A stretch of 64,000 nt of DNA from Escherichia coli (GCF_048403405.1 NZ_CP183129.1), one strand, 5' to 3'; positions 12,654-29,579 are shown, counted from the stretch's first letter. Notes: generated from the sequence alone by a model not told the origin. Program-made: numbers and translations.

Positions 12654-15206
12654 TTATTTACCTAGCATGAACTGCGATGGTGGGATCAGAAAGTCGTTAC
12701 CCTGCTCACGCTCAACACGGCGCTGATAACGCTCAAGAGAGCCTGGGTCAAGGGCATCTTGTATCCTGTTCAATATTAAACCATTCATCGCCGTACGAAG
12801 CCAGAACACGTTGAGGAATGGCGTATTGTCAAGTGCCGTGCGATACCAGTCACCCAAATCTGCATCCCCTCTCGTGGTCTGCTGGAGCAGCGTGATAATG
12901 CTGTCAGCGTTCGATGCTGCCGGTCCCATTAGCGACGTAACCGGCCCGGCCCCCATGCGGTTGACCTCGCCAAACATGAAGTCACCCAAGATGCCAAGAC
13001 CGCCCCCCTGAGATGCGGCTGCGAGAAACGTCTTGGCATCTGCCGGGCGTGGTGTTTGCCCTTTCAGCATGAGTTTTGACTGCATGGAGATATAACCAAA
13101 CATAGTCGCCCAGACAAAGAGGTTTGCAGCACCAAGGAAAGCCCCCTTCCCGTTACGTAGCAGCGCATTCGTCAGCGATCCGGTTTTCGACTCACCAAGC
13201 CCAGCAGGAATATAACCACGCCCGAATACTTCGCGTCCTAGTACGTTCTGCATGAAGCTTGCAGTGAACGATTTGTATTGACCAGCGAATCGTATTGCTT
13301 CCCCAGCCACCGTTCCTGGCACCGTGCCCATCTTCATAAACGCCTGCGTGCGATCGCCAGGCTCTGACATGGCGATATTCAGGCGGTCAAGGATGTAGCC
13401 GCGCAACTGCCCTTCCAATTGATCGCGTGCGTCAGCGATAGCGCGCTGCGTTGGCTTGATCCCCTTACTCTCTACATAACCGGCAATCACTTCGTCAGGC
13501 ACGCCGCGGATGCCGCTGGTCGTCATGAACTTACGACCTTCGCTATCGGCCATGTCCATGTTGCGAAAAATTTCCCACTCACGTTCGCCAATACCGTGCA
13601 GATCCAGCACGCGTCGCAGGTCTTCCGGTAGCCGCGCATGAGGCTGGTCAGCATTCTTTGCAAGCCAGTTGGTTATCATCATGGCGTTGCTGTTGCGACC
13701 GCTCTCGGTCCAGAAGTTCATGAGGTTGTACTTAAAGAAAAGCTGCTGCGCGCGACCAAGTTTTCCATTCAGCGTGTCATCACCAGATATGCGCCGGATG
13801 ATTTCCTGCGTCATGGAGTCGGAATAAACTCCGATAGAGGAAAGGATCTCTTTCTGCTCCGCGCTGTTGTAACGCGTGAAGCGGCCTCTCATAGCACCAA
13901 GCAACGCCTGCATAAAATTCTGCCCTTGGTAGCGCATCTCGGTAGCGGCGATAGGCACGTCGTTAAACGATGAGATTACCGCGCCACCAAGCTGGCTCAT
14001 ACGCAACCAGCCGCGTACAGCCGCCGACGCATTGGCCCAGCCTACGCTGCCAGGAATATTTAGCGAGCCGTCAACCTGCGGCATTACGGTACGGTTAATG
14101 CGACGCACCTTCGTCATGTAGTCAGCCAACGCTGCCGGTCTTCCGGATTTGCTGATATCTTCAGCAATGGTGTCCGTCAGGTACTTAAACATGTTCTGTG
14201 GGTTAGTGCCCAGTACGCGCATCATGCCCGTTGTGCGGGCAGCGCTGTTTAAGCCACCAAACAGCGCCTCTCGCAGGCTGCCAGTGCCGAATTGCTGGTT
14301 GTACTCGTGCCACGAGATACCATCTTTGAAGTGCAAAATTCGCTCTTGGCTGGCGCGTTTAGCTGCGTTCGCCGATCCCTTAAAGCCATTCATCCAATCT
14401 GGCTTTTCAGATGTAAGATGCACGCCGGAAGCCAGCCCGTTATAAATGTTACGCATGAACTGCTCGCGGTCAGCCACGCCGTCAAAAGTGCGCTCATCAA
14501 GGCGCGGGAGAATAGCATTTCGCCATGCTTCATAACCTGCGGCGCGGATCTTCATGATGTCGTGTGACTGGCGCACTATATAGCCCGGCTCTTTGCGTAT
14601 CCATGCCCCGGCGCGGTTCTCATCAATGCGCGCAGTTTCCTGCCATTTCATGATGATTTGTGCAGCGCTTACGGATTGCTTTGTCATACCGTCAGTTGAC
14701 TGCCCGCGCCCTATGCGCCACATTGCATCGGCAATTTCCCTGTCATTGCTGCCGCTGGCGATGAATTGCACCAGCCCGGCACGGTCAAAATCGTAGTTGA
14801 TACCGGAATGATACTTGCCGTGCAGTTGCGCCACCTCCGAAGATACCGACCGGCGGGCGCCGGTACGCGCATCGTTGCGGCCAACCAGCATTGCTTCAAG
14901 CCCGATATCCGGGCGGTCTTTCCAGATAGTACGAAGCTCTCTAAGTCGTTGTGCGGCAATACGGGTGTTGATTGCCTTATTGCGAGCCTCAATCTGTTTT
15001 GCCAGCATATCGGCATTGCTCAGTTCTTCCGCTGCGCGCATCGCGGCCTCTTCCAGAGACAGCGCCTCATTGGTCGCCAGAATTCGCCTAGTGGTGTCGT
15101 TCATGTCACGCACCAGCGACTCCATCTCATCGGAAGAAAGCTCGCGACCAGCGGCAGCATTTACACTGCGCTCGCACTGCGTCAAAAATTCGTTTGCTGC
15201 CATCAC
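12654..15206 (-). CDS. large hypothetical protein (850 aa), third gene of a tightly packed giant-ORF block; possible phage internal-virion/ejection-type protein
   Basis: Long uninterrupted ORF, 4-nt overlap with upstream gene; no domain recognised by eye. Confidence 0.65.
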   Translation of the reverse strand: MMAANEFLTQCERSVNAAAGRELSSDEMESLVRDMNDTTRRILATNEALSLEEAAMRAAEELSNADMLAKQIEARNKAINTRIAAQRLRELRTIWKDRPDIGLEAMLVGRNDARTGARRSVSSEVAQLHGKYHSGINYDFDRAGLVQFIASGSNDREIADAMWRIGRGQSTDGMTKQSVSAAQIIMKWQETARIDENRAGAWIRKEPGYIVRQSHDIMKIRAAGYEAWRNAILPRLDERTFDGVADREQFMRNIYNGLASGVHLTSEKPDWMNGFKGSANAAKRASQERILHFKDGISWHEYNQQFGTGSLREALFGGLNSAARTTGMMRVLGTNPQNMFKYLTDTIAEDISKSGRPAALADYMTKVRRINRTVMPQVDGSLNIPGSVGWANASAAVRGWLRMSQLGGAVISSFNDVPIAATEMRYQGQNFMQALLGAMRGRFTRYNSAEQKEILSSIGVYSDSMTQEIIRRISGDDTLNGKLGRAQQLFFKYNLMNFWTESGRNSNAMMITNWLAKNADQPHARLPEDLRRVLDLHGIGEREWEIFRNMDMADSEGRKFMTTSGIRGVPDEVIAGYVESKGIKPTQRAIADARDQLEGQLRGYILDRLNIAMSEPGDRTQAFMKMGTVPGTVAGEAIRFAGQYKSFTASFMQNVLGREVFGRGYIPAGLGESKTGSLTNALLRNGKGAFLGAANLFVWATMFGYISMQSKLMLKGQTPRPADAKTFLAAASQGGGLGILGDFMFGEVNRMGAGPVTSLMGPAASNADSIITLLQQTTRGDADLGDWYRTALDNTPFLNVFWLRTAMNGLILNRIQDALDPGSLERYQRRVEREQGNDFLIPPSQFMLGK

Positions 15207-16900
15207 ATCCCCCGGTTAATCATACAGGCGGCAAATGCCCGGAAAGCGTTGCTCATGCTATTGTCGCTGGCGTCGGCACGAATATCATTGAGTTTCTGGC
15301 GCAACGTGGTCGCAAGATCAGGGTTATCGACAGCGATATCGTCAAGCAGGGCGTTACTCAGGTTGAGCTCGTTATCAAGGTCTGCAGCGGCAGCGGTAAT
15401 TTCATGATCTGCCTTTTGCGTTTCTTGATAAACCCGATCGGCTGTTTCGCTTGCTGGGCGAGCCGTTTCATCAACCTGCCGTGCCGGATTCTGTATGCGA
15501 TGGATGGCGCGTTCACGCAGTGCCGGTTTGTGCAGTTCATAGAAGGGCTCAACATCTGGGCTACGTCCTTCCATCATGTGTGCCAGCGCAGCGCGATACG
15601 CCTGCTGGTTCACGCTCCAGTCAGCATCCCTGATGGCGCTTGCGGCAGTGCGAACTGCGCCAGCGACCGGCGACATCTGCATGCCGTCCAGGATCTGCTG
15701 CGCACGCTCGGAAATGGTGACTTTCAGGTCGTCGGGGATCTCGCCGCGGGAAATCTGAGACTGGCGCCAGCGCGCCTGCTCTGCTGTCGCGTTCTGCTCC
15801 AGCGATGTGTTGATCTCCTGATTGCGTGCAGCGATGGCGTCTTTCTCGGCCTGAATCTCTTTCAGTGCCCTAGAGCGCGCATCCTTAAACTTCATCCGCT
15901 TCCCCTGATACTTTTTGGTGCGCTGTTGCAGCGTCGCATCAAGCGAGTCAGCATGACGTTGATTAGCCGCAAGCTCGGCACGCAGGTCGGCAACGTTACC
16001 GATCTGCCCGCTCTGTAACTCCTGCTGGCGCGCCATATAGTCAGGAACCACGTCGTCATAAGCCCGGCTGTATGCGTAGCTCTCCGCTTCACTGGAAATG
16101 GCCGCCGCCAGATCTGCGTTAGCGCCAACCTCAGGGATATTCACGCCCGCCGGAATGTTGTCAGGCGTTATCACCGGGGTTGGCTGCGCATCGCCAGAAA
16201 ACTCCGGGGACTCTCCCGTTGCAGCATCGGGAACGCGACGCGGTCGCACGATATCGGCGATAAGGCCGCCGCCGGCATGCATTAGACCGCCAGCCATCGT
16301 GTTAAAGAAAGTACTTTCCAACGCGTTGCTATAGGTGAAGTCGTCACCTTCCGCCGCCGCTGCCAGCCCGGTAAGCGGCACGGTCACCACCGCCTGCGCT
16401 GCCCCCATGCGTGCACCAGCAACAAATCGCTCGCCAAATCGGCCAAGCACAGAAGCTGCCTTTGCTTCTCCAGCGAACGGAACCAGCGCCAGCGCCACGT
16501 TACCAGGATCTGCCATTGAACCAGCTAGGCTGGCTGCGAAATTAAGCGGCGTGGCTACCCACCCGCTCGGTGCCGACATCGCAATCTGCTGGCGTGCCAG
16601 AGAATCTTTGCGTTCGGCAATAACATGATCGAGAAAAGCCTGCGTAACGCCAGAATCTGGCACGTTTATGCTCTTTACGCCGTACTGCTTCAGGAGCTCA
16701 TCTGCGTCCTGCTTACTGATAACTGTAGAGTTTGGGTCATTCGCCAGCGAGTCGGCCTGCGCAAAGCGGTAGCCGGACATGACCGGCCCCTCTTCAAATC
16801 CCTGCTTAAGGGAAGAAAGCAGCGATTCGCCAAGCCCTGCTGGCGCGTTGCCAATTGGCTGGTTAATGCCCTGTCCCGGATCATCTGTGTAAATTGGCAT
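15203..16900 (-). CDS. large Ala/Gly-rich hypothetical protein (565 aa), second gene of the giant-ORF block
   Basis: Long ORF with hydrophobic Ala/Gly-rich segments and a coiled-coil-like C-terminal half; packed against flanking genes. Confidence 0.65.
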   Translation of the reverse strand: MPIYTDDPGQGINQPIGNAPAGLGESLLSSLKQGFEEGPVMSGYRFAQADSLANDPNSTVISKQDADELLKQYGVKSINVPDSGVTQAFLDHVIAERKDSLARQQIAMSAPSGWVATPLNFAASLAGSMADPGNVALALVPFAGEAKAASVLGRFGERFVAGARMGAAQAVVTVPLTGLAAAAEGDDFTYSNALESTFFNTMAGGLMHAGGGLIADIVRPRRVPDAATGESPEFSGDAQPTPVITPDNIPAGVNIPEVGANADLAAAISSEAESYAYSRAYDDVVPDYMARQQELQSGQIGNVADLRAELAANQRHADSLDATLQQRTKKYQGKRMKFKDARSRALKEIQAEKDAIAARNQEINTSLEQNATAEQARWRQSQISRGEIPDDLKVTISERAQQILDGMQMSPVAGAVRTAASAIRDADWSVNQQAYRAALAHMMEGRSPDVEPFYELHKPALRERAIHRIQNPARQVDETARPASETADRVYQETQKADHEITAAAADLDNELNLSNALLDDIAVDNPDLATTLRQKLNDIRADASDNSMSNAFRAFAACMINRGM

Positions 16901-16901
16901 G

Positions 16902-19523
16902 TTATCGTCCTGATTGCTGGCCGTTCTGGAAAATGTTAATCAGGTTGTCGCGCTGACTTTCTGCGCTGTATTCCTTAGACTGTCCGGGAGTATATTTCAC
17001 CGGAGTATCAATGAACTTGGTAATGCTGTTCCATACTGATCGGTTGGTTGTTCCCAGTTTCGCCAGATCGTTGAACGGCACCGTAATCGGGTTGCCGTCG
17101 GCACCGTTGACGATCAGCCCGTTGAGCATCAGGGTAAGTCCTGTTTCGTCGCTGTTGGTAACCCACTGCGCATTATCACGAATGCGGGAGATACTCTGCT
17201 CACGGTTGACCTCATCAGGTAGCCTTGGGTCACCAATAAGCGGCATAATCTGATCTGCTGACAGGTTTTTCAGATACGCATTGGCACCATCGTTAACGTC
17301 ACGAATATCTATCCCTGCACGCTTAGGTAGCCGCCAAGTGCCATTGGTCTGATACTGCTCGCCGAGGATGTCCTGATACGCCTGTTTTGCTGCATCAGAC
17401 GCCGACATTCCGCGCTGCATGTTGATGTAAGTAAGTCGTTTTCCCTGCTCGTTGAAGTTATTCCACACGGCAGTGCCACCAGGCTGAACAACCATCGTGC
17501 CAGCAAAATCTTTCGATTGGTCATTCCATGACGAGTCGGCGCTATCCGCGTCGGTTTTCTCAAGACTGCCGCGTAAGTCAGCAGTTTTAACGCTACGGTT
17601 TTGCCAGAGCGCATTTGCCGCGCGCGGGTTCTCGGTAGCCATGACAACCTGCAACGCAGGATAAGCGCTCTTCTGAACCTGCTGCATCACCTGATCCGAG
17701 TATTTTCCGAACGACTGCGCCACCGACTGAATGGCCTTTACGCTAGATTCCTGCGTGTTGTCAATACGCTGCAGTACGTCGTTGACCATGGACTCCGGTA
17801 AAACTTTTTTGCTCATTATCCCCAGGCGGTCTTTTTCAGACTGTATGCGGGAAACTAGGTATTCACCAGATGAAGGGTCATTGAGGTACTGCTGGAATGC
17901 AGCCTGCACAACCGGAGAGTTTTGTTGCAGCCATGCCCCCGGATCCGCTTCCCGCGCCTTCAGTACCTGCCCAAGCTTGACCTTTGCCGATGCATAAAGC
18001 TCGGCTTTGTATTTAAAGTCAGGGTCGTTTTCCTGCGGTGCCATTGCCTGCACGGCGGCGGTACCCTGCTGGACGTTGCCCTGCATGATGGTCTGATAAA
18101 CAGGTTGTAGCGTCATTGCCTGCTGGTATTGCTGGAAGGTTTTTTCCATCTGCAGGCGCTCGGCAGGCGCTGCCTGAAGCGGCATAACGGCGGCCCATTC
18201 GTGCGCTGAAATAGGCGTCACCTGCTTACCGGCCTCAATTTTGGATAGGTCGTCCTGCATTCGACTCTGTAGCGCAACGCGACCGGCTGAAGCCTGCATG
18301 TCGTACATGCCAGCAACCTTGCTCATCATCTGCGACTTTTTGTCCGGACTCATGGCGTTCCAGAATGGCTGTGCGATGAGGTTTTCCATCGTCGCAGATC
18401 CAGGAATAGCTCCAGCACTGCCAGTTACTTTTGCCACATAATTGCGCGTCTCGTCGTATGGGATAGCTGCGGCAAACTGGGCGTTACTGACTTCGCCTGT
18501 GCGCGGATCGCCAATCTGTTTAATCCAGCCGTCAACCTTTCCTGGGCCAGCGTTATAGGCAGCTACTGCCAGAACCGGGTTATTGTCGTATTTCTTCATC
18601 TGCGCGCCGAAATAAGCTTGCCCCAAGCGGGCATTATAGCGCGGGTCATTCAACCATTTATCTCGGTCCCACGGCACACCAGCAAGGCGGGCAGCTTCGG
18701 GGCCAGTATCTTCCGTCACCTGCGCTACGCCAACAGCGCCTTTTGGCGACACCAGAGGTGTTCCGTCCTTTCCGTACTGATTTCCGCCACTCTCCTGCCA
18801 GATTATTGCAGAGAATAACTGCGCCTCACTCGGTGTATCGGTTACCTCAATCTTGCCGTTCGGCCCCATCATCTGTTGATACATCGGCACATACCACGCC
18901 TCCGCCGCACCGTTCGCGGCATTCTCGCGCCACGAAACCCAGTTCTGTTCGATCTCTTCCTGACTCTGGCCGTGTGCTTCGCCGTAAGCGATGATGCTAT
19001 GATATGCCTTCAATCCTGCCTGGTTTGCCATTGTCGGGTTACGGAACTGCATCGATAGGTTTTTTAGTGTCGCATCCTGCATATCCGCCTCATACTGGCG
19101 AACCTGTCCTATTTCGTACCTCCCAGCCTGCGTAGTGAACTGAATGCGCTGCTGCTGCGCCTGCTGCATGAAAGCATTACGAGCCTGTTCATCCGGCAGC
19201 GACATAGCCAGTTGTTCGACCTGAGCATCAAACTGCTGCGTATACTCCTGACCTTTTCCAATAGCATTTTTCCCTTTCAGGTTAAGCAAACCTGTTTCAG
19301 GGTTATTCAGCAGATCGCTGCCTGTCTGACTGAGTTTAAGGGATGCCTCCTGAACCAAGGCAATATTGGCACGCTGTTTTGCCTGACCCAGAACATCAAT
19401 TGCCTCTGCTCCTGCACGAACAAAAGCATCACTAATACCTGGCTGAGAAAACGTCTGCAAGCCTGCTGACTGAACTCCACGGCTCTCAACCTGACGTCCG
19501 GATACTGTTGGTACGACTGGCAT
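16902..19523 (-). CDS. large protein (873 aa) with internal soluble lytic transglycosylase (SLT) domain
   Basis: SLT catalytic motifs in the translation: ...IIWQESGGNQYG...VGVAQV...AYNAGPGKVDGW; remainder Gln-rich. Confidence 0.75.
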   Translation of the reverse strand: MPVVPTVSGRQVESRGVQSAGLQTFSQPGISDAFVRAGAEAIDVLGQAKQRANIALVQEASLKLSQTGSDLLNNPETGLLNLKGKNAIGKGQEYTQQFDAQVEQLAMSLPDEQARNAFMQQAQQQRIQFTTQAGRYEIGQVRQYEADMQDATLKNLSMQFRNPTMANQAGLKAYHSIIAYGEAHGQSQEEIEQNWVSWRENAANGAAEAWYVPMYQQMMGPNGKIEVTDTPSEAQLFSAIIWQESGGNQYGKDGTPLVSPKGAVGVAQVTEDTGPEAARLAGVPWDRDKWLNDPRYNARLGQAYFGAQMKKYDNNPVLAVAAYNAGPGKVDGWIKQIGDPRTGEVSNAQFAAAIPYDETRNYVAKVTGSAGAIPGSATMENLIAQPFWNAMSPDKKSQMMSKVAGMYDMQASAGRVALQSRMQDDLSKIEAGKQVTPISAHEWAAVMPLQAAPAERLQMEKTFQQYQQAMTLQPVYQTIMQGNVQQGTAAVQAMAPQENDPDFKYKAELYASAKVKLGQVLKAREADPGAWLQQNSPVVQAAFQQYLNDPSSGEYLVSRIQSEKDRLGIMSKKVLPESMVNDVLQRIDNTQESSVKAIQSVAQSFGKYSDQVMQQVQKSAYPALQVVMATENPRAANALWQNRSVKTADLRGSLEKTDADSADSSWNDQSKDFAGTMVVQPGGTAVWNNFNEQGKRLTYINMQRGMSASDAAKQAYQDILGEQYQTNGTWRLPKRAGIDIRDVNDGANAYLKNLSADQIMPLIGDPRLPDEVNREQSISRIRDNAQWVTNSDETGLTLMLNGLIVNGADGNPITVPFNDLAKLGTTNRSVWNSITKFIDTPVKYTPGQSKEYSAESQRDNLINIFQNGQQSGR

Positions 19524-19619
19524 TAGTAACCTCCTATTTTGAATCGGGAGTCAGAATTCATAAAACCTGAGTTAGATAACATTGGCGTCCCTCTGCTTTG
19601 ATGCTGTACCAGCGATTCA

Positions 19620-19826
19620 TTACTCACCCCCCGATGCAAAACCATTCTGATTAAGCCAGGCGTTTACGGCATGTCTGACAATCTGCGCCACGCCTGGTAA
19701 TGGCTGATCAGGGTGATTGTTCACATGGTCGATTCTGTACTGCTTAATGCGCATCACGGTCTGTGCATCCAGATGAACGGAACCACCTCTGACATCGCCT
19801 GTGTTCAGGTCGTTAATACAATTCAC
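19620..19826 (-). CDS. small hypothetical protein (68 aa)
   Basis: ORF directly upstream of the giant-ORF block on the same strand; no recognisable motif. Confidence 0.4.
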   Translation of the reverse strand: MNCINDLNTGDVRGGSVHLDAQTVMRIKQYRIDHVNNHPDQPLPGVAQIVRHAVNAWLNQNGFASGGE

Positions 19827-20192
19827 AGCAATTTCCTCTTACTGACTAAACTATGCACATTATTGATCTGAAAAAGTGGTAGATAAACATATTTCTATCA
19901 CAAAAACAGATTGATTGATTTCAGCCCCAAAAAAAGCCGGATTGCTCCGGCTCTGTGCTTACTTCTGGTAGTTACGCCATACTGATTTCCCGATCCCATC
20001 TATCCCCATTTCTTTTTCAGTGCGTTTAAGCGACCGTTTCAGGTCTTCTAAATTATCCGGTTGCTTCGGTGGCCTCTGTGCCTTCCTGGAACATTCCAGT
20101 CGTCGCATTGATATGTAATACCGTTCCTTATCAGTTTCCCAACTGCATTACTTCACCCCATCGCGCCGCCGCTCTTCGGTACAGGGTTTTAG

Positions 20193-20609
20193 TTAGCCTC
20201 CGACTCTTCCGTAGCGCTGTTCTGGTGGATTCACATAGCCCCTTTCTTGCAGGTATTCGCGAATATCAGACATCAGGAGACGGTTAACCGTGCTCTTGTC
20301 TTTTCTCCGGTAAAGGCGTCTGGTGATCATGAAGTAGTTAGCAATGACCTCCGGTATATCCCTGACGCTGATACATGCTGTATGCTGGTCAATAGCTTCA
20401 ATCATCTCTTCACGAGTTACAAAAGTCTGGCGTAAACGAGTGATCACACCATGTACATCTGAACGATCATTTATACGCTTATTTTGGCGCTTCGCGCTCT
20501 CGACTGTGACACTGACAATAATGTCAACTCTTTGTTTTTCCGCCATTTCATCCACAATGTGATCACCTGCACGGCGACCATGTGCGTGATCATTTCTTAC
20601 TATTTCCAT
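20193..20609 (-). CDS. hypothetical protein (138 aa)
   Basis: ORF overlapping the end of the FinO/ProQ-like gene by 20 nt on the same strand; basic, possibly nucleic-acid binding. Confidence 0.5.
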
Positions 20610-21087
20610 TCATCTCCTCCAGTAGTTTTCCTGCGTGCGTCTGTTGTAGTGGTGTTACCTCGCCGCACGGCTGGCCTTTCAGGTCGTAACGCGCGCCACC
20701 AGCTACCAGGGCGCGGTAATAGCGCGGAGTCTGCACATAACGCGCCAGCGTTGCGCGTAGTGTTCCCTGTCCGAGTGAAATACCTCTCGCGGCAATATCC
20801 TGTATCAGGTCGTCAAATATCCCCACCTTAAGCGGCTTAGGTGATTCCGGGCTGAATAATTCAGGCCATAGCTCAATAAGACGGTTAACGCGTCTGCGGT
20901 TTTTACGCTGCTGTTTGGTCATACGCCGCCGCGGTGTTGCTCCTGTGAGCTTCTGCTGTGTGTTCTGGTTATCTGGCATCACTTTATGCGCCGATGTGGT
21001 TTTATTCTGCTGCTGCGCCGCCTGTGCTGTTTTCTGCGGCGTGCCGTAAATGCCCTTCGGTTTTCTGTTTATGGTCAGCTTTGTCAT
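20590..21087 (-). CDS. FinO/ProQ-domain RNA-binding protein
   Basis: Central region ...[76 protein letters not shown]... resembles the ProQ/FinO N-terminal domain; basic N-terminal tail. Confidence 0.75.
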
Positions 21088-21123
21088 GCCTTCCCCTGTA
21101 ATTACTCTGTTCGCTGTTGTGAA

Positions 21124-21546
21124 TTAAAACGGTATCCCGTCCCCGTACGGATCGTCGTTACCCGCCTGTTGTTTTGCCCTGTTCAGTGCGTCAGTAGCCT
21201 GCCCTTGCTGGCCTTTTTTGCCGCCCGGTCGCGCCGTTCTCGCACTGATTACGCTGTCTGCGATAACCTGCCAGCCCTGCCGCGTTTCGCCGTTCTGGCC
21301 TGTCCACTGGCTTACCTGCATGTTACCCGCCACGCTCACCAGTTCGCCTTTGTGGTGTTTTGCCAGTGCGTCGGCCTGTCTGCCAAACGCCAGGACGGAT
21401 AACCACATCGTCGCCGTTCCGTCATCTGCCTGATTGCATGGAAGGGGGACCGCCATACTCGCCATCGCCATTTGTGTGCCCTTGCTGGTGGTCTTTAACT
21501 GCGGGTCAGCCACCAGCCGCCCGTAAGCTGATATTTGCGCCGTCAT
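21124..21546 (-). CDS. single-stranded DNA-binding protein (SSB-like OB fold)
   Basis: OB-fold pattern (AYGRLVADPQL...W...FGRQAD...KGELVSVAGNMQVSQW) and acidic C-terminal tail ending DGIPF, as in the SSB DIPF tip. Confidence 0.7.
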   Translation of the reverse strand: MTAQISAYGRLVADPQLKTTSKGTQMAMASMAVPLPCNQADDGTATMWLSVLAFGRQADALAKHHKGELVSVAGNMQVSQWTGQNGETRQGWQVIADSVISARTARPGGKKGQQGQATDALNRAKQQAGNDDPYGDGIPF

Positions 21547-21589: not shown

Positions 21590-21740
21590 CACTCTTACAG
21601 TGAAATTTTGCGGGTTACAATCGCACATTTGCGGGTTATAACTGCCGTTTTGCGGGTTACGTGCGGGTTATTGATTTCCTTTTTAATCATGCAGTTAATT
21701 AACTTATGCACAGGATAACCCGCATAACCCGCAACTTTTT
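21590..21740. repeat. iteron-type candidate origin of replication, directly 3' of the primase/helicase gene
   Basis: ttgcgggtta x4 (21603-21670), AT-rich spacer, then inverted taacccgca x2 (21715-21735). Confidence 0.6.
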
Positions 21741-21756: not shown

Positions 21757-23883
21757 TTAATCTTCTGCTTCAGGCTGGAACATCAGCACGTAAAAAATAT
21801 GCTGCTTCCCGCCAATCCTGCCGAGCGCCTTTTTCTTGTAACGGCGGTCGCCTCCCGCTTCCAGCATTCCGGCAGCACTCAACGCGCGGGCAAAGTGAGA
21901 CGGATTAAATCCCTGTGCTATCTCACCCTCAAACACATGCGGGAACGTGTAAAAACGGAACTCGTCATCTTCGTTTCTGATACTCCCCTTTCTGTATCCG
22001 GCAAGGTCTTTAATCGGTAAATCACGCTCGTCGCTGTTTGGATAGGGAAGGTATCGACTGAACCCGAACGACGACAAAAACGCCTCAGCCTGTTCAACCA
22101 TCTGTTTAAATTCCCTGTTGCCCGTGCCGAATTCCTTCACCCAGGCATTAAAGTTATGCTGAACTGCATCACGGCACGCCTGAACATCCCAGCCTGTAAC
22201 ATGACCGGAAAGCACAAGCGCGGCCTCCAGTACGGCGAATCTTTCCCCCACACGGTGAACCTGCTCGCCGTAGCTCTCCGGTATCAGGTTGCGCCACCGC
22301 TCGCGACATGCCCTTACCGCGTCCTTTGCCTCCTGCTGGTGACCTGCCAGCCATTTAACCCACTCACGACCTGCCGCCCCGTGATTTTCTGTCCAGGCAT
22401 CTTTTAACGCGTCTGCGTGCGCCTTTCCGGTGCTGTATTCGTGAAACTGCGATGCCTTTTCCATCGGCACGTTAAGCAGACGGACAAGCTGCCCCGCTTT
22501 AATTTTTATCCCTTCCGTTTTGAGGAATGTTTCAACGTCCATTTCTCCGGTGCTGATTGCCACCGTGCGCCAGTGTTTTATCTCCCTGTTGCCGCCGTCC
22601 TTCGCCCCCTGTAATTTCCCGGAACCGTTAAACAGCGTATAGGCTGACGTGGACACCTCCCGCGCGTTTCCGGCCTGGCCTATTTCATCCAGGGGTAACA
22701 GCCCGTCATTATGTGCTTCGGCCTCGTTGGCGATACCTAACGCCGTTCCGTACCAGGTCAGCCGTTGCGCGTCCGGCTCTCCCCATAAACTTGATGCAAT
22801 GTTCTGTGTGGTGGTTTTACCTGCTGATGATTGCTCAAAAAGATGAACCCCGAAGCCGTCAGCACCCACCAGCCCGATTAATGGTGCGGATAGCGATACC
22901 GCCACACCCAGCATCATGGACGGATTACCACCAGCCAGCCGTGCCACGGTATCGCGCCAGCCCTCCGCTGTTCCCGCCACGGAATAGCCATTAACAGCGG
23001 CAGTTTTTCCGGTAAACAGGATGGGTTTCTCTGATTCACCAATGACCGAACCATCCGGCATGATGTACGCACCAAAATGCCACCCCGTTGTTGTGCTTAA
23101 CTGCCATTCCTCATGGTTTCCGCTTAACTGCATCCAGTCAGCCAGGATAGCCCTGTATTTGCCGTTGGTCGTCACGTTAAGGCCGTGGTCTTTCAGCAAC
23201 CGCCAGCCGTCACGGTCACCAATGCCTCCGCACGGGACCGCCATTGTAATGACCTCATGGTTTGCTGGTTTTTTCCAGCGCATCACGCGGTAATGCTCTT
23301 TGCCGATTGTTCCTGTTCCCAGTAGTTCAAGCGGAGAACATAACCACGTCTCAGGCCGGATAATTTCGCCTGACTGCTTGTCCACTTTGGGCGTTACCCA
23401 GAAAACACCATCGACGCGACTTTCAACACGAGGCTTTAATTCGTCATCATAATTTCCGGTGAAATTTGTCTTCGCCGGAAGGTTGATCACCAGACTGTTA
23501 CCGCGTTCCGCATCATCCTTCAGTCCAGCCATGCGCGGTGTCCAGTCCTCCGGCTGCTGATCAACAAAGCTGCGGTAGCAACGCGCCTCCTTCACACCCG
23601 CCACTGCAAGCAGTGTCGCTATCTGTGTAAGGTGCTGCTCTGATATTTCACCAGCACGATAAACGCGCACGTAATAGCGCCCTTTGTCGATGATTTGCGT
23701 GTCTGCCAGACTCGCCAGTTGTTCCGGTCCAAGAATAACTGGATGTGTATCATCTGCCGCAATATGCTTTCCGGCCCATTCGCTCCACTCTTTCGCATGT
23801 GCCCAGGCATCACTACCCGCAAAGATAATCACCTCCGTCATTTTGTCTTTCGGCTGGTGCTTTAAATTCGGTGCGCGTTTCAT
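21757..23883 (-). CDS. primase/helicase-type replication initiator (P-loop NTPase, P4-alpha/DUF927-like)
   Basis: 708-aa ORF with Walker A-like FEQSSAGKTTT; followed by iteron ori as in satellite rep genes. Confidence 0.7.
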   Translation of the reverse strand: MKRAPNLKHQPKDKMTEVIIFAGSDAWAHAKEWSEWAGKHIAADDTHPVILGPEQLASLADTQIIDKGRYYVRVYRAGEISEQHLTQIATLLAVAGVKEARCYRSFVDQQPEDWTPRMAGLKDDAERGNSLVINLPAKTNFTGNYDDELKPRVESRVDGVFWVTPKVDKQSGEIIRPETWLCSPLELLGTGTIGKEHYRVMRWKKPANHEVITMAVPCGGIGDRDGWRLLKDHGLNVTTNGKYRAILADWMQLSGNHEEWQLSTTTGWHFGAYIMPDGSVIGESEKPILFTGKTAAVNGYSVAGTAEGWRDTVARLAGGNPSMMLGVAVSLSAPLIGLVGADGFGVHLFEQSSAGKTTTQNIASSLWGEPDAQRLTWYGTALGIANEAEAHNDGLLPLDEIGQAGNAREVSTSAYTLFNGSGKLQGAKDGGNREIKHWRTVAISTGEMDVETFLKTEGIKIKAGQLVRLLNVPMEKASQFHEYSTGKAHADALKDAWTENHGAAGREWVKWLAGHQQEAKDAVRACRERWRNLIPESYGEQVHRVGERFAVLEAALVLSGHVTGWDVQACRDAVQHNFNAWVKEFGTGNREFKQMVEQAEAFLSSFGFSRYLPYPNSDERDLPIKDLAGYRKGSIRNEDDEFRFYTFPHVFEGEIAQGFNPSHFARALSAAGMLEAGGDRRYKKKALGRIGGKQHIFYVLMFQPEAED

Positions 23884-24182
23884 TTCTTGCCCCTGAATGC
23901 GTTAATCATGTTCTTTATTACCTGAATATTTGCCCGTGCTTTCTCTTTACTGGTGGGCTTACTGCGTGGTACTGCACATACCAGTGAAAAATCACGCCGG
24001 AACTGATGAACGGGCATCACACAGTCATAGTCGTACCCTGCGCGGCGGTATGTAATGTGCCGTTCATACACGGAATTAATAACCACGCTGTCACCATATT
24101 TATCCCGGAAAATATCCCCGATCCTGATTTTCGGGTGAGTCTGTCCGCTGGCATTTAAGCCAGTAAATTTAATCTTCTTCAT
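23880..24182 (-). CDS. hypothetical protein (100 aa)
   Basis: ORF overlapping primase/helicase start by 4 nt. Confidence 0.5.
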   Translation of the reverse strand: MKKIKFTGLNASGQTHPKIRIGDIFRDKYGDSVVINSVYERHITYRRAGYDYDCVMPVHQFRRDFSLVCAVPRSKPTSKEKARANIQVIKNMINAFRGKK

Positions 24183-24184
24183 GT

Positions 24185-24442
24185 TTATTTCCCGGTGTGA
24201 GGTTCTTCTTTATATTTATGGGCTAACAAATCTGGTAATTGCCTGTATTTATCCTCGGCAATATATTCAGAATAATCGACAGCACTGTTCAGTATATCTA
24301 ACGCCGTTTCATGCTCCAGATTCGAAACTATAAGGAACGTTGCTACTTTTAGCATATTCGCGATATGCAAAAGAGCATCAATTTCATTTTTTGGCGCTTC
24401 ACTGAATTTTTGCTCCAGAAGAATAAATCGTTCATCACGCAT
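24185..24442 (-). CDS. hypothetical protein (85 aa)
   Basis: ORF in the same operon orientation, 2 bp from downstream gene. Confidence 0.5.
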   Translation of the reverse strand: MRDERFILLEQKFSEAPKNEIDALLHIANMLKVATFLIVSNLEHETALDILNSAVDYSEYIAEDKYRQLPDLLAHKYKEEPHTGK

Positions 24443-24638
24443 AGTATTCCCCCTGACGGATGCGGGCAGTAAATACCATCACGCAGCCAGCCGGGGATTG
24501 CTGACGGGCTTCCTGTTCGCTGGCGGCCTCGATGTGTATTACGCGTGGTTGTGCGGTGCTCAGGGCGATAAAACGCCAGATGTATTTATTCAGGTTGTGC
24601 GAGTCCCGCCCTTGCGGGTGTGTGGTATGATTTAACAT
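24435..24638 (-). CDS. small protein (67 aa); possibly an Icd-like cell-division-inhibitor type protein
   Basis: C-terminal 67 codons of the 345-aa ORF have normal composition and overlap the next gene by 8 nt; the rest of that ORF looks like antisense artefact. Confidence 0.35.
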   Translation of the reverse strand: MLNHTTHPQGRDSHNLNKYIWRFIALSTAQPRVIHIEAASEQEARQQSPAGCVMVFTARIRQGEYYA

Positions 24639-24699
24639 AGCTACCTCGATACGCTTTCTATCGTTGGTGGTTAGACGCCCTGCATGTGTTGCGAGCACT

Positions 24700-24795
24700 G
24701 CGGGGCGTTGCTTAATTTGAGCAATGCAACCCAAACTGTGCGCACAGATTAAAATCATGTGTGCGCACATGTCAATACTTAACTTCTCACTTTTT
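24700..24795. promoter_or_regulatory. candidate operator/promoter region with TGTGCGCACA-type palindromes
   Basis: ctgtgcgcacag, tgtgtgcgcacatg and tgtgtgcgcccatc within ~90 bp, upstream of the + strand small gene at 24844. Confidence 0.4.
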
Positions 24796-24843
24796 TTGCT
24801 GTATTGTGTGCGCCCATCAAATCCATTTAAGTGAGGTGTACCA

Positions 24844-25041
24844 ATGTCTAGCGGAAACACAAACAACAAATCAGCAAAGAAAAATATTCGATTCCCGCAC
24901 GAGCTTATAGATGGGATTGATGCCAGTGTTGAACAAGAAAAATTAACTAATCCTAGTGCTAATTTTTCCGCATGGGTCTTAGATGCCTGTGGACGCAAAT
25001 TAAAATATGAACAGCGCCGGAAGGCCAAAGAGCAGGAGTAA
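24844..25041 (+). CDS. small DNA-binding protein, possibly ribbon-helix-helix
   Basis: 65-aa ORF with RHH-like segment IRFPHELIDGIDASV; C-terminus ...RRKAKEQE. Confidence 0.45.
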   Translation: MSSGNTNNKSAKKNIRFPHELIDGIDASVEQEKLTNPSANFSAWVLDACGRKLKYEQRRKAKEQE

Positions 25042-25098
25042 CCATCACCAGCGCCGTGGTGCGGTGAACTGTGGCGCACAGGGTTACAGGTATCTACG

Positions 25099-25296
25099 AT
25101 GACTGACAAATCATTAAAGAAATTATCCTCATCCAGGAAAAAACAACGCAAAAATGCGGTAAGCGAACAAGAACAGGAAAGATTTGCGCCATGTGCGTTT
25201 GTCCTTGAGAAGTTCTTAAAAGAGTACAGGCGCACAAAAATGGGATCGCATACCTGGAAAACATCGCAGTATGGCGATGCTAAAGAGCAGGAATAG
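25099..25296 (+). CDS. small basic protein (65 aa), shares C-terminal motif with upstream gene
   Basis: C-terminus ...YGDAKEQE repeats the AKEQE ending of the 24844 gene. Confidence 0.4.
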   Translation: MTDKSLKKLSSSRKKQRKNAVSEQEQERFAPCAFVLEKFLKEYRRTKMGSHTWKTSQYGDAKEQE

Positions 25297-25464
25297 CCCA
25301 CCAGCAAGCCAGCACACTGATCACATTGCCCACCAGCCGCAAATCTGGCATTGTTGGCGATGCGTTTGATTTCCTTTGTTCCCACTGGCGACCTATCCCG
25401 GTCGCCTTTGTTTTGCCTGTTATCCAGCAACGGGGCGCTTTTTCTTTCTGTAACGTTCGGATCG

Positions 25465-26208
25465 TTACGCATGGCTGCTCACCTCCATGCGGCGGGCTAA
25501 CCAGCGTTGCGAAAGACGAATTAATTCAGCTTTCCGCTGGTGGTAGTCCTGGCCTAACTCAATCAGCGTGATATTGCTCTGCTCAAGGTAAGAAAGGTGC
25601 TCAAGCTGCAGCGTGCTCATGTGGTCGCGTGGTTCGCCTGTGATGCCGTTCGCCTGCGCCCACTGTTTTGCAGTCATGCCACCCAGCACGATACGCGCCA
25701 GCATATTGGCTTCCGTGGTGTAGTGGTGCTGGAGCGTGTTTTTACCCAGTTCAGCGCGGTACGCCTCCAGCGCGGCACACATCGGCTTAAAGTAGCTGGC
25801 AACGGTGATACGGGCTTTCAGTTCACGGCGTAACGCTGCGGAACGCACTGGCGCTACTTTGTGTAGCTCCTCCTCGCATTTGATGAAGTACTGACGAATA
25901 GCGCGGCCCTGTTCGGTACGCTCGACCATCGCAAGTTCTTTCGCCATGTTGATGGTACTCAGGTAGTCGTGCTCTACACGTTGGCGAGATTTTGCGCTCA
26001 CCGGATTGGGGGAGGTCAAATTTTCTACAAACTCAAAATCCACGCCATTTTTAAATCCGTACTGATCAATACGCCCTTTAATCCATGTAGTGAAATCACG
26101 CTTCACACCAAGCGCCTTATGTAACGCTCTGGCGCTGACAATGGCTGTTTCATGTCCGCCAATAATGCCAGGTGATACCGGAATAAGTGCGGCGAAATCC
26201 TTAAGCAT
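25465..26208 (-). CDS. phage antirepressor-like protein (KilAC/Ant-type)
   Basis: 247-aa ORF whose C-terminal half resembles KilA-C antirepressor domains; position between Rha-like and replication genes. Confidence 0.6.
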   Translation of the reverse strand: MLKDFAALIPVSPGIIGGHETAIVSARALHKALGVKRDFTTWIKGRIDQYGFKNGVDFEFVENLTSPNPVSAKSRQRVEHDYLSTINMAKELAMVERTEQGRAIRQYFIKCEEELHKVAPVRSAALRRELKARITVASYFKPMCAALEAYRAELGKNTLQHHYTTEANMLARIVLGGMTAKQWAQANGITGEPRDHMSTLQLEHLSYLEQSNITLIELGQDYHQRKAELIRLSQRWLARRMEVSSHA

Positions 26209-26899
26209 GATTTACCCCCAGATACGGCTCAGATGTCATCAGGCTGGCGAATGTCTCCATGCGTCGGGCAACCTCCCGCACTGCTTCGGTAGGTGTCATG
26301 CCGTTCTGTATCGCCTCCTCAAATGCGGCCTGTTCGATTTTCTGCATGACAATCAGCAAGCCTAACTGCTGCTCGCTGGCTGTGCCTCGTTCGCCAGTTA
26401 CCAGACCTGTAACACGGTTCTCTGCGCGTGCCAGATTGATGTAATGGTGACGTTCTGCGCCCAGTGCTTTAAGCCCGTCACGGCTTTCGTGATAGCCTGG
26501 CAGATATTCACGGCGTACAGGCTCGGTAGCGCGATGTTTTGCGAATGCCTTCGTAACATCCAGCTTGAAGCGGTTCATGCGTTCATCATCACGACCGCGC
26601 ACAATGCGACACATGTAATCAAACTGATCGCTATTCAGGAGGGCAAACTTATGTTCACGCTCCCCGTTTTGACGGGTTTTTAATCGCTCCGTTTGAAACG
26701 GAAGGATGCCCAGTTCACGCAATCCGGTTTTGTGCTTCTGAATGAGCGAATAAAGGTTTTTGTGCTTTATGCCAATACGCTCAGCAAATAAGCGGGAATC
26801 AATGCGCGACTCCGCTTTGTGGCGAACCAGAATATCGCTCATGCTGGTTTCAGGCCGAACGAAGCCCTGCCCCTGTACGGGCGTTTTTCGCAGTTTCAT
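26201..26899 (-). CDS. phage regulatory protein, Rha-like
   Basis: N-terminal segment ...RIDSRLFAERIGIKHKNLYSLIQKH... resembles Rha/ORF6N regulators. Confidence 0.55.
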   Translation of the reverse strand: MKLRKTPVQGQGFVRPETSMSDILVRHKAESRIDSRLFAERIGIKHKNLYSLIQKHKTGLRELGILPFQTERLKTRQNGEREHKFALLNSDQFDYMCRIVRGRDDERMNRFKLDVTKAFAKHRATEPVRREYLPGYHESRDGLKALGAERHHYINLARAENRVTGLVTGERGTASEQQLGLLIVMQKIEQAAFEEAIQNGMTPTEAVREVARRMETFASLMTSEPYLGVNHA

Positions 26900-27663: not shown

Positions 27664-28314
27664 TTAGTCGAGATCGTGGACAGCTAATAAAGCCCGTGAG
27701 ATTTTTTCTAGGAATGTGGCTTTTGCTATTCCTTTATGGGATATCCCTTCATCCTTGATTAAGGTTTCTATGTCACGGTATATAGCTGTGCGATTAGGTT
27801 TCCCATTTTGGATGTAGGAAGATGAGCCTGATTTTTTTATCAGCAGATGTACTATCAACCCCATCATTTTCATTGTCCCGTTTTCCTCATCCTGCTTTCT
27901 ATGCTGCCCACGTCCGCTGCGGTTGGTTTCTTTGATGTAGTTTACTAACTGGAGTCCTCCAAGGTTTCGGGCTTTTTCTTCCCAGCCCTTGGTGCCACGC
28001 AAATCATCAATCGCTTCTGATATTTTCTGAACAATTATTTCTGGTGTATTTGTGTCAATAAATGGGTAAGAAGCTAAGAAAATATCAAGGGCATGGCAAG
28101 GCTCGTCTTTACTAGTTTTTTCACCTCTGTACACCTTGATAGCTCTGGCAAGATGAGTTCTGACAAAATCGACATATTCGAAATTTTCCTCAGGCACATC
28201 GCTAATGCGCATAGATGGGTTTAGGCCAGCCAAGGCCACAGCCATTTCATGAGGGGTAATCGATACAGATGAACAAAGCCGTTCGATTGGCGATTTTCTC
28301 AAGATGTTGTTCAC
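27664..28314 (-). CDS. hypothetical protein (216 aa) in the int-alpA variable slot
   Basis: ORF overlapping int stop by 4 nt; AT-rich; no recognisable motif. Confidence 0.6.
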   Translation of the reverse strand: MNNILRKSPIERLCSSVSITPHEMAVALAGLNPSMRISDVPEENFEYVDFVRTHLARAIKVYRGEKTSKDEPCHALDIFLASYPFIDTNTPEIIVQKISEAIDDLRGTKGWEEKARNLGGLQLVNYIKETNRSGRGQHRKQDEENGTMKMMGLIVHLLIKKSGSSSYIQNGKPNRTAIYRDIETLIKDEGISHKGIAKATFLEKISRALLAVHDLD

Positions 28315-29579
28315 ATTTGCCTCCGGGCTTTATCGAATGGCGTTACGTTGTAGTCTTTCCCGCTTTCCAGTGCCACCAGCAGATCAGCCCACTGTGCCAG
28401 CGCAGCTTTACGCTCATCAAAATACTGATGGCGGTTATAAATCCCCTCCACACCCTTAATGCGATGATTGAGGCATCGTTCCGCTACGACAGGATCAACA
28501 CCCAATGCTGCTAAATGAGTACGTGCGGTACGCCGGAAGTCGTGAATCGTGAAATTAGGCACATCCGGCATTTCGGCGCGAACCTTAGCCAGTGCTACGG
28601 GTAAAGTGCTTTCCTGAATATGTGGGATCATTCTGTTTTGCATCTTCCTGGCTGGAAGCACCCATGCGCTATTACATGAAAAGGTGTGTAGCTCTCTCAA
28701 CCATTCAACGGCAGGAGAAGGTAGAGGTATATCAATAGGGTCTCCGTTTTTGCTGCGTTCTTCCGGCAAATGCCATACCGCACCATCTAAATCAAACTCT
28801 TCCCATCGTGCGGCGCATAACTCCATCTTACGAACGCATAGTGCCAGCAATAGCTTAAATGTCAGTTCGTTCTGGCGGCTGAATCCTTTTGCGGTGCGCA
28901 TAGCCTCGAATAGCCTGATAAGCTCATCGCGAGTTAGCCAACGGTCGCGGGAAACCTCTTTACCACCAGCATCAGATACTTCAAACGCTGAACAAGGGTT
29001 TATCTCCAGAGCGTGGCGTTTTATCCCATAGTCAAAGATACGGCGTGTCCAGCGTAATACATCTGTTGCTATCGTTGGTGCTCCTCGGTCAACGATACCT
29101 TTCAACATGTCGTCAATGTGGCGTGGCTTAACGTCCTCTACCTTCATATGCCCAATGCAGGGGTTAATATCCTTATCAATTCTCCGGCGAAGGATATCGG
29201 GATGTTTCCATCTCGGAAGTATCTGTCGCTCGAAGTATTCGGCGGCCAGATCTGAAACGCGCATGGCGTTTTTCTCAGCCTCCATTTTTGCCAGTGCTTC
29301 AGCTTTTCGTTCCTGTTTTTCTGCTGCTACGTCATAGCCAAGAGCAACTCTGGCTGACAGCTCTTTTGCTATTTCTCTGGCTTTTGATAGTGACAGTTCG
29401 GAGTAAGAGCCGATAACCATAGCCCGCTGTTTTCCTGCGAGCTTATATCGGAATCGCCAGAACGGGACTGTGTAGTTTTTGGGGTAGCAAATATAAAGGC
29501 CGTTGCCGTCTGCCTTGCCATCAAATCTGTCTCCCGCCTTTATCCATGCGCGGATCTGCATATCTGTGAGTTTTGGCAT
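28311..29579 (-). CDS. int: tyrosine recombinase/integrase, P4-type
   Basis: C-terminal catalytic region ...HDFRRTARTHL...NHRIKGVEGIYNRHQYFDERK...; start taken at MPKLTDMQIRAWIKAG (ORF track extends to 29663). Confidence 0.9.
   Translation of the reverse strand: MPKLTDMQIRAWIKAGDRFDGKADGNGLYICYPKNYTVPFWRFRYKLAGKQRAMVIGSYSELSLSKAREIAKELSARVALGYDVAAEKQERKAEALAKMEAEKNAMRVSDLAAEYFERQILPRWKHPDILRRRIDKDINPCIGHMKVEDVKPRHIDDMLKGIVDRGAPTIATDVLRWTRRIFDYGIKRHALEINPCSAFEVSDAGGKEVSRDRWLTRDELIRLFEAMRTAKGFSRQNELTFKLLLALCVRKMELCAARWEEFDLDGAVWHLPEERSKNGDPIDIPLPSPAVEWLRELHTFSCNSAWVLPARKMQNRMIPHIQESTLPVALAKVRAEMPDVPNFTIHDFRRTARTHLAALGVDPVVAERCLNHRIKGVEGIYNRHQYFDERKAALAQWADLLVALESGKDYNVTPFDKARRQM

Follow-up and report, generated by a model that had tools for sequence, protein, structure and literature searches.

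The stretch analysed here (hereafter the window) comprises 64,000 nt of an Escherichia coli chromosome (NZ_CP183129.1). On its minus strand lie three large genes, encoding proteins of 873, 565 and 850 amino acids, followed by a gene for a 186-aa protein and an intrinsic terminator (Table 1). We refer to these four genes as the cassette and to the products of the first three as proteins 1, 2 and 3. The packing is as tight as the original prediction described: 1 nt separates the 873- and 565-aa genes, the 565- and 850-aa genes overlap by 4 nt (or by 1 nt, with the start chosen by RefSeq, an ATG at 15203 instead of the GTG, which yields 849 aa), and the 850- and 186-aa genes are 2 nt apart. The cassette lies within an inserted element of 19,023 bp (10757–29779). 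Our data support the view that the three large genes encode podovirus internal-virion (ejection) proteins, and that the element is a satellite of the phage-inducible chromosomal island (PICI) type.

Each of the cassette open reading frames (ORFs) fits one PHROG family end to end, and RefSeq annotates all of them in identical copies. By these sequence measures, they are genuine genes rather than chance ORFs. Matches of the three large proteins span E values of 1e-271 to 1e-282; that of protein 3 (6e-271), to a family described as 'virion structural protein', covers its whole length. Protein 1, whose sequence includes ...QESGGNQYG...AVAAYNAGPG..., carries an SLT domain at residues 257–371 (nt 18411–18755), which matches SLT70-type lytic transglycosylases in the PDB (E = 2e-13) and is also found with NCBIfam, bearing out the catalytic core first noticed by eye. 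Protein 2 is Ala/Gly-rich, as had been noted, and its hydrophobic segments correspond to moderately hydrophobic stretches in residues 134–183. It matches phrog_342 'internal virion protein' weakly, and its gene occupies the position of epsilon15 gp16 and phiV10 p19. Sequence and profile searches of proteins 2 and 3 against PDB sequences returned no matches. The 186-aa protein has no match in Pfam; its residues 1–19 are hydrophobic and signal-peptide-like, and its gene, at the position of phiV10 p21, is specific to each cassette allele (see below). The fourth gene may encode an allele-specific periplasmic factor. In a related Klebsiella-type prophage (Logan SRR20799046 contig), a Rap1a-like periplasmic immunity protein (PF18602; 12550–12906) follows the ejection trio.

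To model protein 3, we used an alignment of 88 diverse homologues, drawn from a family that numbers 4,440 clusters at 50% identity. AlphaFold2 returned a confident, all-helical structure, with a predicted local distance difference test score (pLDDT) of 87.8 and a predicted template-modelling score (pTM) of 0.89. Foldseek found no match for this model in the PDB. Among predicted structures, its matches are annotated as internal virion proteins: one of Vibrio phage VP2 (E = 2.5e-28), those of LKA1 and LIMElight, both phiKMV-like, and the 'internal virion protein D' of several Autographiviridae (for the phiKMV-like and protein D targets, probability 1.0, E = 1e-6 to 1e-8, template-modelling score 0.4–0.5). 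Internal virion protein D is the name used for T7 gp16. Structure prediction, one of the checks originally proposed, hence assigns protein 3 a predicted fold of the gp16 class. Many members of this family form the C-terminal third of proteins of 2,000–2,700 aa, and these long proteins may be fusions of an entire ejection trio. Homologues of protein 3 on 18–20 kb contigs from Klebsiella and similar hosts were considered as candidate islands and proved to be fragments of ordinary prophages.

The origin of the cassette is evident from DNA comparisons. A complete Uetakevirus prophage of strain ECONIH2 contains a block with 99.5% identity to window positions 12016–19535, and a 76-bp stretch at one end of this region (12016–12092), which includes the terminator, is common to prophage and island. 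In the prophage, the block is preceded by genes for terminase, portal, protease, capsid, Bbp16 cement, gp10 staple, two tail proteins and two internal virion proteins, the second of which is annotated 'virion core protein, T7 gp14 family'. The 873/565/850/186 block then follows, and after it come the tailspike and lysis genes. Both phiV10 and the EP91B prophage have the same gene order, with the module placed after the gp14-like gene and before the tailspike. The head, portal, TerL and gp14-like proteins of the ECONIH2 prophage are 97–100% identical to those of phiV10, the type Uetakevirus. The ejection trio of this phiV10-like prophage is nevertheless a different allele from phiV10 p18–p20: protein 1 is similar (66%) over the first ∼235 residues only, protein 2 has no phiV10 match at E ≤ 1e-5, and protein 3 is 23% identical. 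More generally, the Uetakevirus ejection module is hypervariable, with at least four alleles (phiV10, W, M/epsilon15-like and C, the last three described below) beside near-identical heads (NZ_CP014667.1 versus phiV10).

In epsilon15, gp15 and gp16/17 have been assigned to the packaging/injection apparatus, and the gp14–16-like ejection genes have been mapped bioinformatically (PMC12391199; PMC8954989). The cassette resembles epsilon15 gp15–gp17 and phiV10 p18–p20 in order, in corresponding to the position after the gp13/gp14-like proteins, and in ending at the operon terminator. It differs in that the window genes stand apart from gp13/gp14-like, head and tail genes, on a non-phage replicon. 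By sequence, the island carries precisely the final four genes of a Uetakevirus late operon, together with its intrinsic terminator, and lacks the gp13/gp14-like genes. The T7 gp14/gp15/gp16 ejectosome and phiKMV gp35–37 belong to the same functional class, internal virion proteins among which are a lytic transglycosylase and a large helical protein. Together with the predicted fold of protein 3, the near-identity to a module that follows a T7-gp14-family gene supports the initial assignment of these proteins to the podovirus internal-virion/ejection class. A conjugative or type IV secretion origin of the SLT protein, a kind of non-virion homology that had been named as one way in which this assignment could fail, was ruled out by the full-length matches to phage virion PHROGs and by the 99.5% DNA identity to the prophage.

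We then asked what kind of element carries the cassette. Strain 4621 has an empty site, TTAATCAACATTCTGAACATG, and the window splits that sequence into the left and right junctions, which fixes the boundaries at 10757 and 29779. The flanks (window positions 1–10756 and 29768–64000) are 100% identical and contiguous in strain 4621 and several other strains. A 21-bp imperfect repeat flanks the ends of the element, and the element sequence begins at the equivalent of 10757 in all copies. Near-identical copies of the same element occupy a second chromosomal locus in other strains, and two further assemblies carry the element. No tRNA genes lie within the window. These comparisons indicate that the element is a discrete, mobile unit inserted by site-specific recombination at no fewer than two sites. 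The gene disrupted in the window (9412–10758, plus strand) encodes a leucine-rich-repeat (LRR) protein of 478 aa in strain 4621 and of 448 aa in the window; the island has inserted into its 3' end, and a new stop is created at the junction. The attB in this gene is a secondary site, resembling the yicC-dinD site, and 2 bp have been lost at the left junction.

Apart from two small ones, all genes of the element are on the minus strand. A tyrosine integrase lies at one end, with att repeats, and an AlpA-family gene, of modest Pfam score, sits in the position downstream of the integrase that is canonical for PICIs. The element also has its own primase with an adjacent candidate origin. At 19,023 bp it is smaller than a phage genome, and none of its ORFs matched a capsid, portal, terminase, tail, holin or lysis family in PHROGs or NCBIfam. 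This negative, which upholds the absence of capsid and terminase genes remarked on earlier, covers the ORFs searched within the att-bounded 10757–29779; YlcI/YnfO, a 65-aa ORF and the Icd-like gene are named from RefSeq only. Likewise, no homologues of Psu, Delta or Sid were detected among the annotated ORFs (PHROGs, NCBIfam), no Rfam family was found in the element at E ≤ 0.1, and the 138-aa protein encoded beside ProQ/FinO and SSB has no Pfam match.

Two iteron arrays lie in the element, one directly 3' of the primase gene and the other in a 1.3-kb non-coding stretch at the far end. Of the 13 window copies of the 9-bp iteron, 11 fall within the element, compared to ∼0.5 expected by chance per 64 kb. 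Pairs of such arrays are kept in relatives of the capsid-forming PICI (cfPICI) type, either 8 kb apart or adjacent. These patterns mark the island, at the level of sequence, as an autonomous replicon, with the primase-proximal array the likely replication origin. In the window, the two arrays are in opposite orientation and 10 kb apart, bracketing the cargo slot. A 48-bp non-coding motif near the integrase-distal end is 83–92% conserved in many related islands and could be a packaging, regulatory or arm-type site.

Table 1. Features of the inserted element and its junctions (window coordinates)
Feature	Position	Strand	Remarks
Left junction (att)	10745..10763		TTAATCAACATT followed by GAATCTG; at 3' end of truncated LRR-protein gene
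Distal iteron array	11229..11382		TGCGGGTTA ×2–3, then an AT-rich spacer, then TAACCCGCA ×3 (21-bp spacing)
48-bp non-coding motif	11700..11747		Conserved in many related islands
Intrinsic terminator	12060..12077	-	GGCCGC-TTTC-GCGGCC then TTGTTTTT; closes cassette
Fourth cassette gene, 186 aa	12091..12651	-	phrog_11983 end to end
Ejection/core protein 3, 850 aa	12654..15206	-	GTG start; predicted gp16 'internal virion protein D' class; phrog_684
Ejection/core protein 2, 565 aa	15203..16900	-	ATG start; Ala/Gly-rich; phrog_3003 end to end, E 8e-282
Ejection/core protein 1, 873 aa	16902..19523	-	ATG start; phrog_1044 end to end, E 3e-281
68-aa backbone gene	19620..19826	-	phrog_4934; precedes virion-module slot
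PerC-family regulator gene	19959..20184	-	Annotated frameshifted; RefSeq name from identical copies
138-aa protein, ProQ/FinO-family, SSB	20193..21546	-	ProQ/FinO 20590–21087; SSB 21124–21546
Primase-proximal iteron array	21609..21733		TGCGGGTTA ×4, then an AT-rich spacer, then TAACCCGCA ×2
DUF927 primase/helicase, 708 aa	21757..23883	-	Island replication protein; phrog_1139 'DNA primase' E 2e-174; RefSeq 'DUF927 domain-containing protein'
Regulatory block	23880..26899	mostly -	DUF4222, 85-aa ORF, Icd-like, YlcI/YnfO, 65-aa ORF, AntA/AntB, Rha-like
Icd-like gene	24437–24772	-	RefSeq annotation only
YlcI/YnfO	24844–25041	+	RefSeq annotation only
65-aa ORF	within 23880..26899	+	RefSeq annotation only
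AntA/AntB anti-repressor-like	25465–26208	-	
Rha-like	26201–26899	-	
AlpA-family regulator, 72 aa	26974..27192	-	Pfam Phage_AlpA E 6.9e-6; phrog_66
216-aa protein and P4-type tyrosine integrase	27664..29579	-	Integrase 28311–29579; phrog_1 E 2e-64; NF007246
Right junction (att)	29768..29788		TTATTCGATATTCTGAACATG

One could suppose that the three large genes are simply the leftovers of a Uetakevirus prophage after deletions, and their origin fits that idea. However, the DUF927 primase, SSB, ProQ, AlpA and integrase genes have no DNA match in the Uetakevirus-type prophage region compared and differ from the replication genes of phiV10; furthermore, the exact att boundaries, the empty site, the intact copy at a second locus and the cfPICI-type backbone all speak against decay, which we regard as very improbable. 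An ordinary prophage fragment is contradicted on the same grounds (att boundaries, empty site, second locus, non-phage backbone). The int-AlpA-primase core, the cfPICI relatives, the empty site and the occupation of two chromosomal sites instead agree with the satellite-type carrier originally proposed. That the element is an integrated 19.0-kb PICI-type satellite, from a sister lineage of the cfPICIs, is well supported by these sequence features. Under a published scheme, in which islands with int, AlpA and primase only are 'Type C' PICIs (PMC10085698), it would be classed merely as Type C, as was the island EcCIMP1 discussed below.

The closest backbone relatives are cfPICIs of the EcCIEDL933 type (PMC10085698). 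Loci with primases 85–89% identical to that of the window have TGCGGGTTA iterons in the same two positions, the same SSB and sometimes ProQ. Between the arrays, these relatives encode the cfPICI module, namely the major capsid protein (MCP), prohead protease, portal, head-closure protein (Hc1), HNH, TerS and TerL. In other IMG/VR relatives, a ClpP-MCP fusion gene directly follows the 68-aa gene that in the window precedes the cassette. The cfPICIs build their own heads and steal tails only, whereas the window island has none of these genes. Because it has no capsid or packaging genes, and ejection proteins instead, it would have to take whole heads and tails from a helper. On this comparison, one E. 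coli lineage, narrow and recent, has the ejection cassette in the place that a cfPICI-type backbone gives to its virion module. Two other islands fill the same slot with a 670-aa SLT protein (phrog_2276/7694 'tape measure') and a hub-like protein of phrog_196 (L084, 12640–15775; L089, 12245–16210), and the second additionally has a fibre-like protein (phrog_817) there; these genes may represent another envelope-penetration module on a satellite backbone. The window island is also like P4 in having a P4-family integrase, an AlpA-type regulator, a primase-helicase replicon and a need of a helper for all virion parts; it differs from P4, which has Psu, Delta and Sid and a P2-like myovirus helper, where a podovirus is the likely helper here. 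P4 has two separated iteron sites, ori and crr, which the array pair of the window resembles.

A second PICI turned out to have a comparable arrangement. EcCIMP1 is a 19,963-bp PICI of E. coli MP1 (Pick, Stadel & Raivio 2025, ISME J, PMC11773190). Its excision was detected only in lysogens of Kapi1, and was higher still on Kapi1 induction; Kapi1 (vB_EcoP_Kapi1), a 39,436-bp podovirus of the genus Lederbergvirus, transduces the island at low frequency (PMC11773190). EcCIMP1 contributes to immunity against superinfection by its helper, and no known defence system was detected, and its PerC-like protein is a repressor of LEE, the locus of enterocyte effacement (PMC11773190). The authors found no structural genes and considered EcCIMP1_017–019 hypothetical proteins, 'DNA transfer'-like candidates for a role in packaging (PMC11773190). 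When we re-examined the locus, the four genes downstream of the TOPRIM-DUF927 primase proved to form a complete P22-type ejection module: phrog_651 (P22 gp14-like), phrog_598 ('DNA ejection'), phrog_917/2534 ('released from the phage upon host infection') and a 906-aa protein with an SLT domain (phrog_770 'DNA transfer protein').

EcCIMP1 and the window island share the order int, AlpA, AntA/AntB, DUF4222, Icd-like and DUF927 primase, a PerC-family gene, the absence of capsid, terminase and lysis genes, and an SLT-bearing ejection block downstream of the primase. Their primases are 62% identical (over the C-terminal 560 aa of the EcCIMP1 enzyme) and their AntA/B proteins 59%. Both are about half the size of the helper-type genome (19.0–20.1 versus 39.1–39.7 kb for the window lineage; 19.96 versus 39.4 kb for EcCIMP1). 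In EcCIMP1, however, the module is of the P22/Lederbergvirus type (gp14/7/20/16 analogues) and shows 24–83% protein identity to that of Kapi1, the integrase is 29% identical, the att site is at tRNA-Thr, and the primase is extended at its N-terminus by TOPRIM. The window island, for its part, has a Uetakevirus-type module 99.5% identical to prophage copies, together with SSB, ProQ/FinO and cfPICI-type iterons. Thus, the kind of island is known and EcCIMP1 provides a sequence-level precedent, so to call the arrangement unprecedented would be too strong. Nor is there a need for the second explanation offered at that stage, a previously unrecognized envelope-penetrating delivery module. A literature search gave no direct description of satellites carrying ejection or internal-virion proteins as such. 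What appears new, from the sequences compared, is a Uetakevirus-type cassette on a cfPICI-type backbone, the existence of three swappable alleles, and purifying selection on an island-specific allele, as detailed next.

The backbone segment adjacent to the block occurs at ≥98.7% identity in 44 of 5,426 complete E. coli genomes. The backbone-cassette junction is likewise present in 44 of the 5,426, with a C-type junction in 2 more, and in the ∼45 complete genomes that carry the backbone the slot is always filled with an ejection cassette. Three unrelated alleles (W, that of the window, M and C) occupy this one slot, in backbones ≥98% identical. The M type, found in most of the 44 genomes, encodes proteins of 843, 686 and 918 aa and, in addition, a membrane protein of 113 aa; its PHROG matches are phrog_992/1044, phrog_1145 and phrog_684, and it shows 78% DNA identity to epsilon15 gp15–17. 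The C type, seen in two genomes, comprises a 915-aa SLT protein and a 1129-aa 'internal virion protein' (phrog_342/16310). Protein 1 is conserved across the cassette alleles over its first ∼235 residues (66–70% identical to other alleles and to phiV10 p18). When the window is compared with the M-type island of strain M21170, the backbones agree at 99.7–99.98% identity on either side of a swap region that spans window positions 12092–19105, from the conserved N-terminus of protein 1 to the terminator stretch; both of these borders are also common to prophages. Integrase modules of at least two kinds occur in this lineage, whose islands are inserted at yicC-dinD, at tRNA-Gly and, as in the window, in the LRR gene (at least three sites in all); backbone divergence is no more than 2.5%. 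One genome of chicken E. coli (NZ_CM163382.1) has two islands, at ∼4.955 Mb and ∼5.112 Mb, with a W/M-type and a C-type junction.

W and C alleles are 99.5–100% identical to prophage copies. The M allele, by comparison, is present at ≥96.8% identity in 45 genomes and is island-borne in every copy examined or listed; among E. coli prophages, only EP91B has it, in a 78% similar form, and other Uetakevirus prophages share the first ∼1.5 kb only. In four M island copies, all ORFs are intact, and pairwise ratios of nonsynonymous to synonymous substitution rates (dN/dS) are 0.02–0.30 in the three genes. The M genes for proteins 2 and 3, which lack prophage counterparts, give values of 0.02–0.22. These data argue for purifying selection on the island-borne ejection genes of the M allele. 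Since the M ORFs are intact, dN/dS is low and no near prophage donor exists in E. coli, the cassette does not seem to be merely a passive copy of a resident prophage.

A neutral passenger of no use to the island, captured once by illegitimate recombination from a prophage segment, still young and undecayed, and later subject to passive allele replacement through recombination with resident prophages, accounts poorly for the M allele, which lacks E. coli prophage donors and has the low dN/dS values just given for proteins 2 and 3. Intact ORFs of 1.7–2.8 kb persist across ∼45 genomes, three integration sites and two integrase modules, and in EcCIMP1 a P22-type module is placed in the same way on a backbone that is distantly related. 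The narrowness and recency of the lineage (divergence ≤2.5%), the related islands elsewhere that lack the cassette, and the near-identity of the W cassette to prophage copies are all compatible with such an origin. On balance, we judge it improbable, slightly more so than either of the two functional alternatives considered below.

The account we favour is that of a PICI-type satellite with a helper-derived ejectosome cassette that is used on its own transducing particles; taken as a whole, we give this account an even chance of being right. A Uetakevirus helper, induced or infecting, would switch on AlpA. The island would then excise, replicate from its own origin and enter heads built by the helper, and, as the island is about half the size of the helper genome, a head would be full with two copies. 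The conserved N-terminus of protein 1 (∼235 residues) would let the cassette proteins assemble on the gp13/gp14-portal core of the helper. Loaded in the particles, the proteins would, at the next infection, digest peptidoglycan and form a trans-envelope channel. In that event, the allele of the ejection apparatus in satellite particles would be set by the satellite rather than the helper, and it could make up for helper modules that are defective or mismatched, or get round blocks to entry. It is plausible that such a satellite would equip its transducing particles with ejection proteins of its own. The chromosome of strain GN02461 (NZ_CP095533.1) is 100% identical to the window flanks, has an empty island site, and at ∼3.903 Mb contains a Uetakevirus prophage with a C-type ejection module; the host lineage of the window may thus be a lysogen of a potential helper whose allele is unlike that of the island.

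Several observations weigh against this account. The helper already supplies its own ejection proteins. No TerS gene and no pac or cos signal was found in the island, and blastn (word size 9) of the backbone against the Uetakevirus prophage revealed no shared DNA beyond the cassette and no shared pac or cos. More broadly, the packaging-hijack genes that count among the marks of a PICI (TerS, Ppi/Rpp, capsid-morphogenesis) were not found among the element ORFs. Between primase and cassette, no sigma-70-like promoter was found, so we assume that the cassette is co-transcribed with the island operon. The distribution of the cassette is also restricted. Among 80 IMG/VR loci with related primases, only 3, with primases ≥99% identical, carry the trio and 77 do not; seven GTDB loci with primases 60–79% identical, from Escherichia albertii and six other enterobacterial genera, lack it; and overall it is confined to islands with primases ≥98.7% identical. 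For the W cassette, the 99.5% identity to prophage copies means that recent passive recombination could explain its arrival. Finally, transduction of EcCIMP1 is very inefficient, and deletion of that island left the helper titre unchanged (PMC11773190).

One alternative is that the cassette counts as DNA rather than through its proteins. The cassette amounts to 7.5 kb of phage-identical DNA, and this homology might let an excised island recombine into helper concatemers, for example via the helper RecE/RecT, and be co-packaged by the headful without a pac site of its own. The cassette is indeed the only DNA common to the island and the helper-type prophage, neither TerS nor a pac signal was found in the island, prophage copies match the W and C alleles at 99.5–100% identity, the cassette borders (protein 1 N-terminus and terminator region) are conserved in all alleles, and phiV10 encodes a RecE/RecT fusion. 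Yet any phage segment would serve this purpose, and two distant PICI lineages carry ejection modules of two podovirus genera. Moreover, past its first ∼1.5 kb, the commonest allele (M) has no near-identical prophage partner in the 5,426 E. coli genomes, the EcCIMP1 module has only 24–83% protein identity to that of Kapi1, and the ORFs are intact with low dN/dS. We therefore consider packaging by homology an unlikely purpose of the cassette.

Similarly unlikely, in our estimation, is a role of the cassette in interference or immunity, in which variant core proteins or the secreted-looking product of the fourth gene would poison helper assembly or block DNA entry by superinfecting Uetakeviruses, to the benefit of host and island alike and not for delivery of the island itself. 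Satellite slots, such as the P4 hotspots, often carry defence genes. PADLOC, run on the cassette and on the ORFs of no assigned function, found no defence-system match, and relatives fill the same slot with virion-building modules. The cassette proteins are full-length and near-identical to functional phage versions rather than truncated or decoy-like. EcCIMP1 adds superinfection immunity against its helper, although it did not lower the helper titre on induction. Further hints in favour come from the fourth gene, which is allele-specific and signal-peptide-like, with a Rap1a-like immunity protein at that position in the related Klebsiella-type prophage.

The strategies known from satellites work through the size of the capsid, the specificity of packaging, the formation of capsids or the theft of tails; none is known to target the DNA-ejection machinery. 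The presence of ejection modules from different podovirus genera in two distant PICI lineages suggests a recurrent solution for satellites of short-tailed phages, one that would account for some of the many 'Type C' PICIs that stand unclassified. A bolder extension, which we put forward only tentatively and think rather doubtful at present, is that PICIs parasitizing podoviruses constitute an unrecognized 'ejectosome-carrying' class, in which stolen heads and tails are loaded with the satellite's own interchangeable cassette and the satellite decides the delivery route and the target cells. If so, satellite particles could enter lysogens or strains that block the helper's ejection allele, and the diversity of Uetakevirus module alleles, along with the island-specific allele, would reflect an arms race at the step of DNA entry. 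Near-identical Uetakevirus heads with unrelated modules, and islands that swap the same cassettes, offer a setting in nature for studying the purpose of different ejection-protein alleles. The favoured account predicts that satellite-mediated transfer, and engineered transducing particles, could differ from the helper in entry properties. Even if the cassette is passive cargo or a homology handle for packaging, it would represent a new route of satellite mobilization.

Among the remaining backbone genes, that of the PerC family is annotated as frameshifted in 5 of 5 island copies examined (L001, L003, L004, L005 and L014), and it may be a conserved pseudogene, a case of programmed frameshifting or an annotation artefact.

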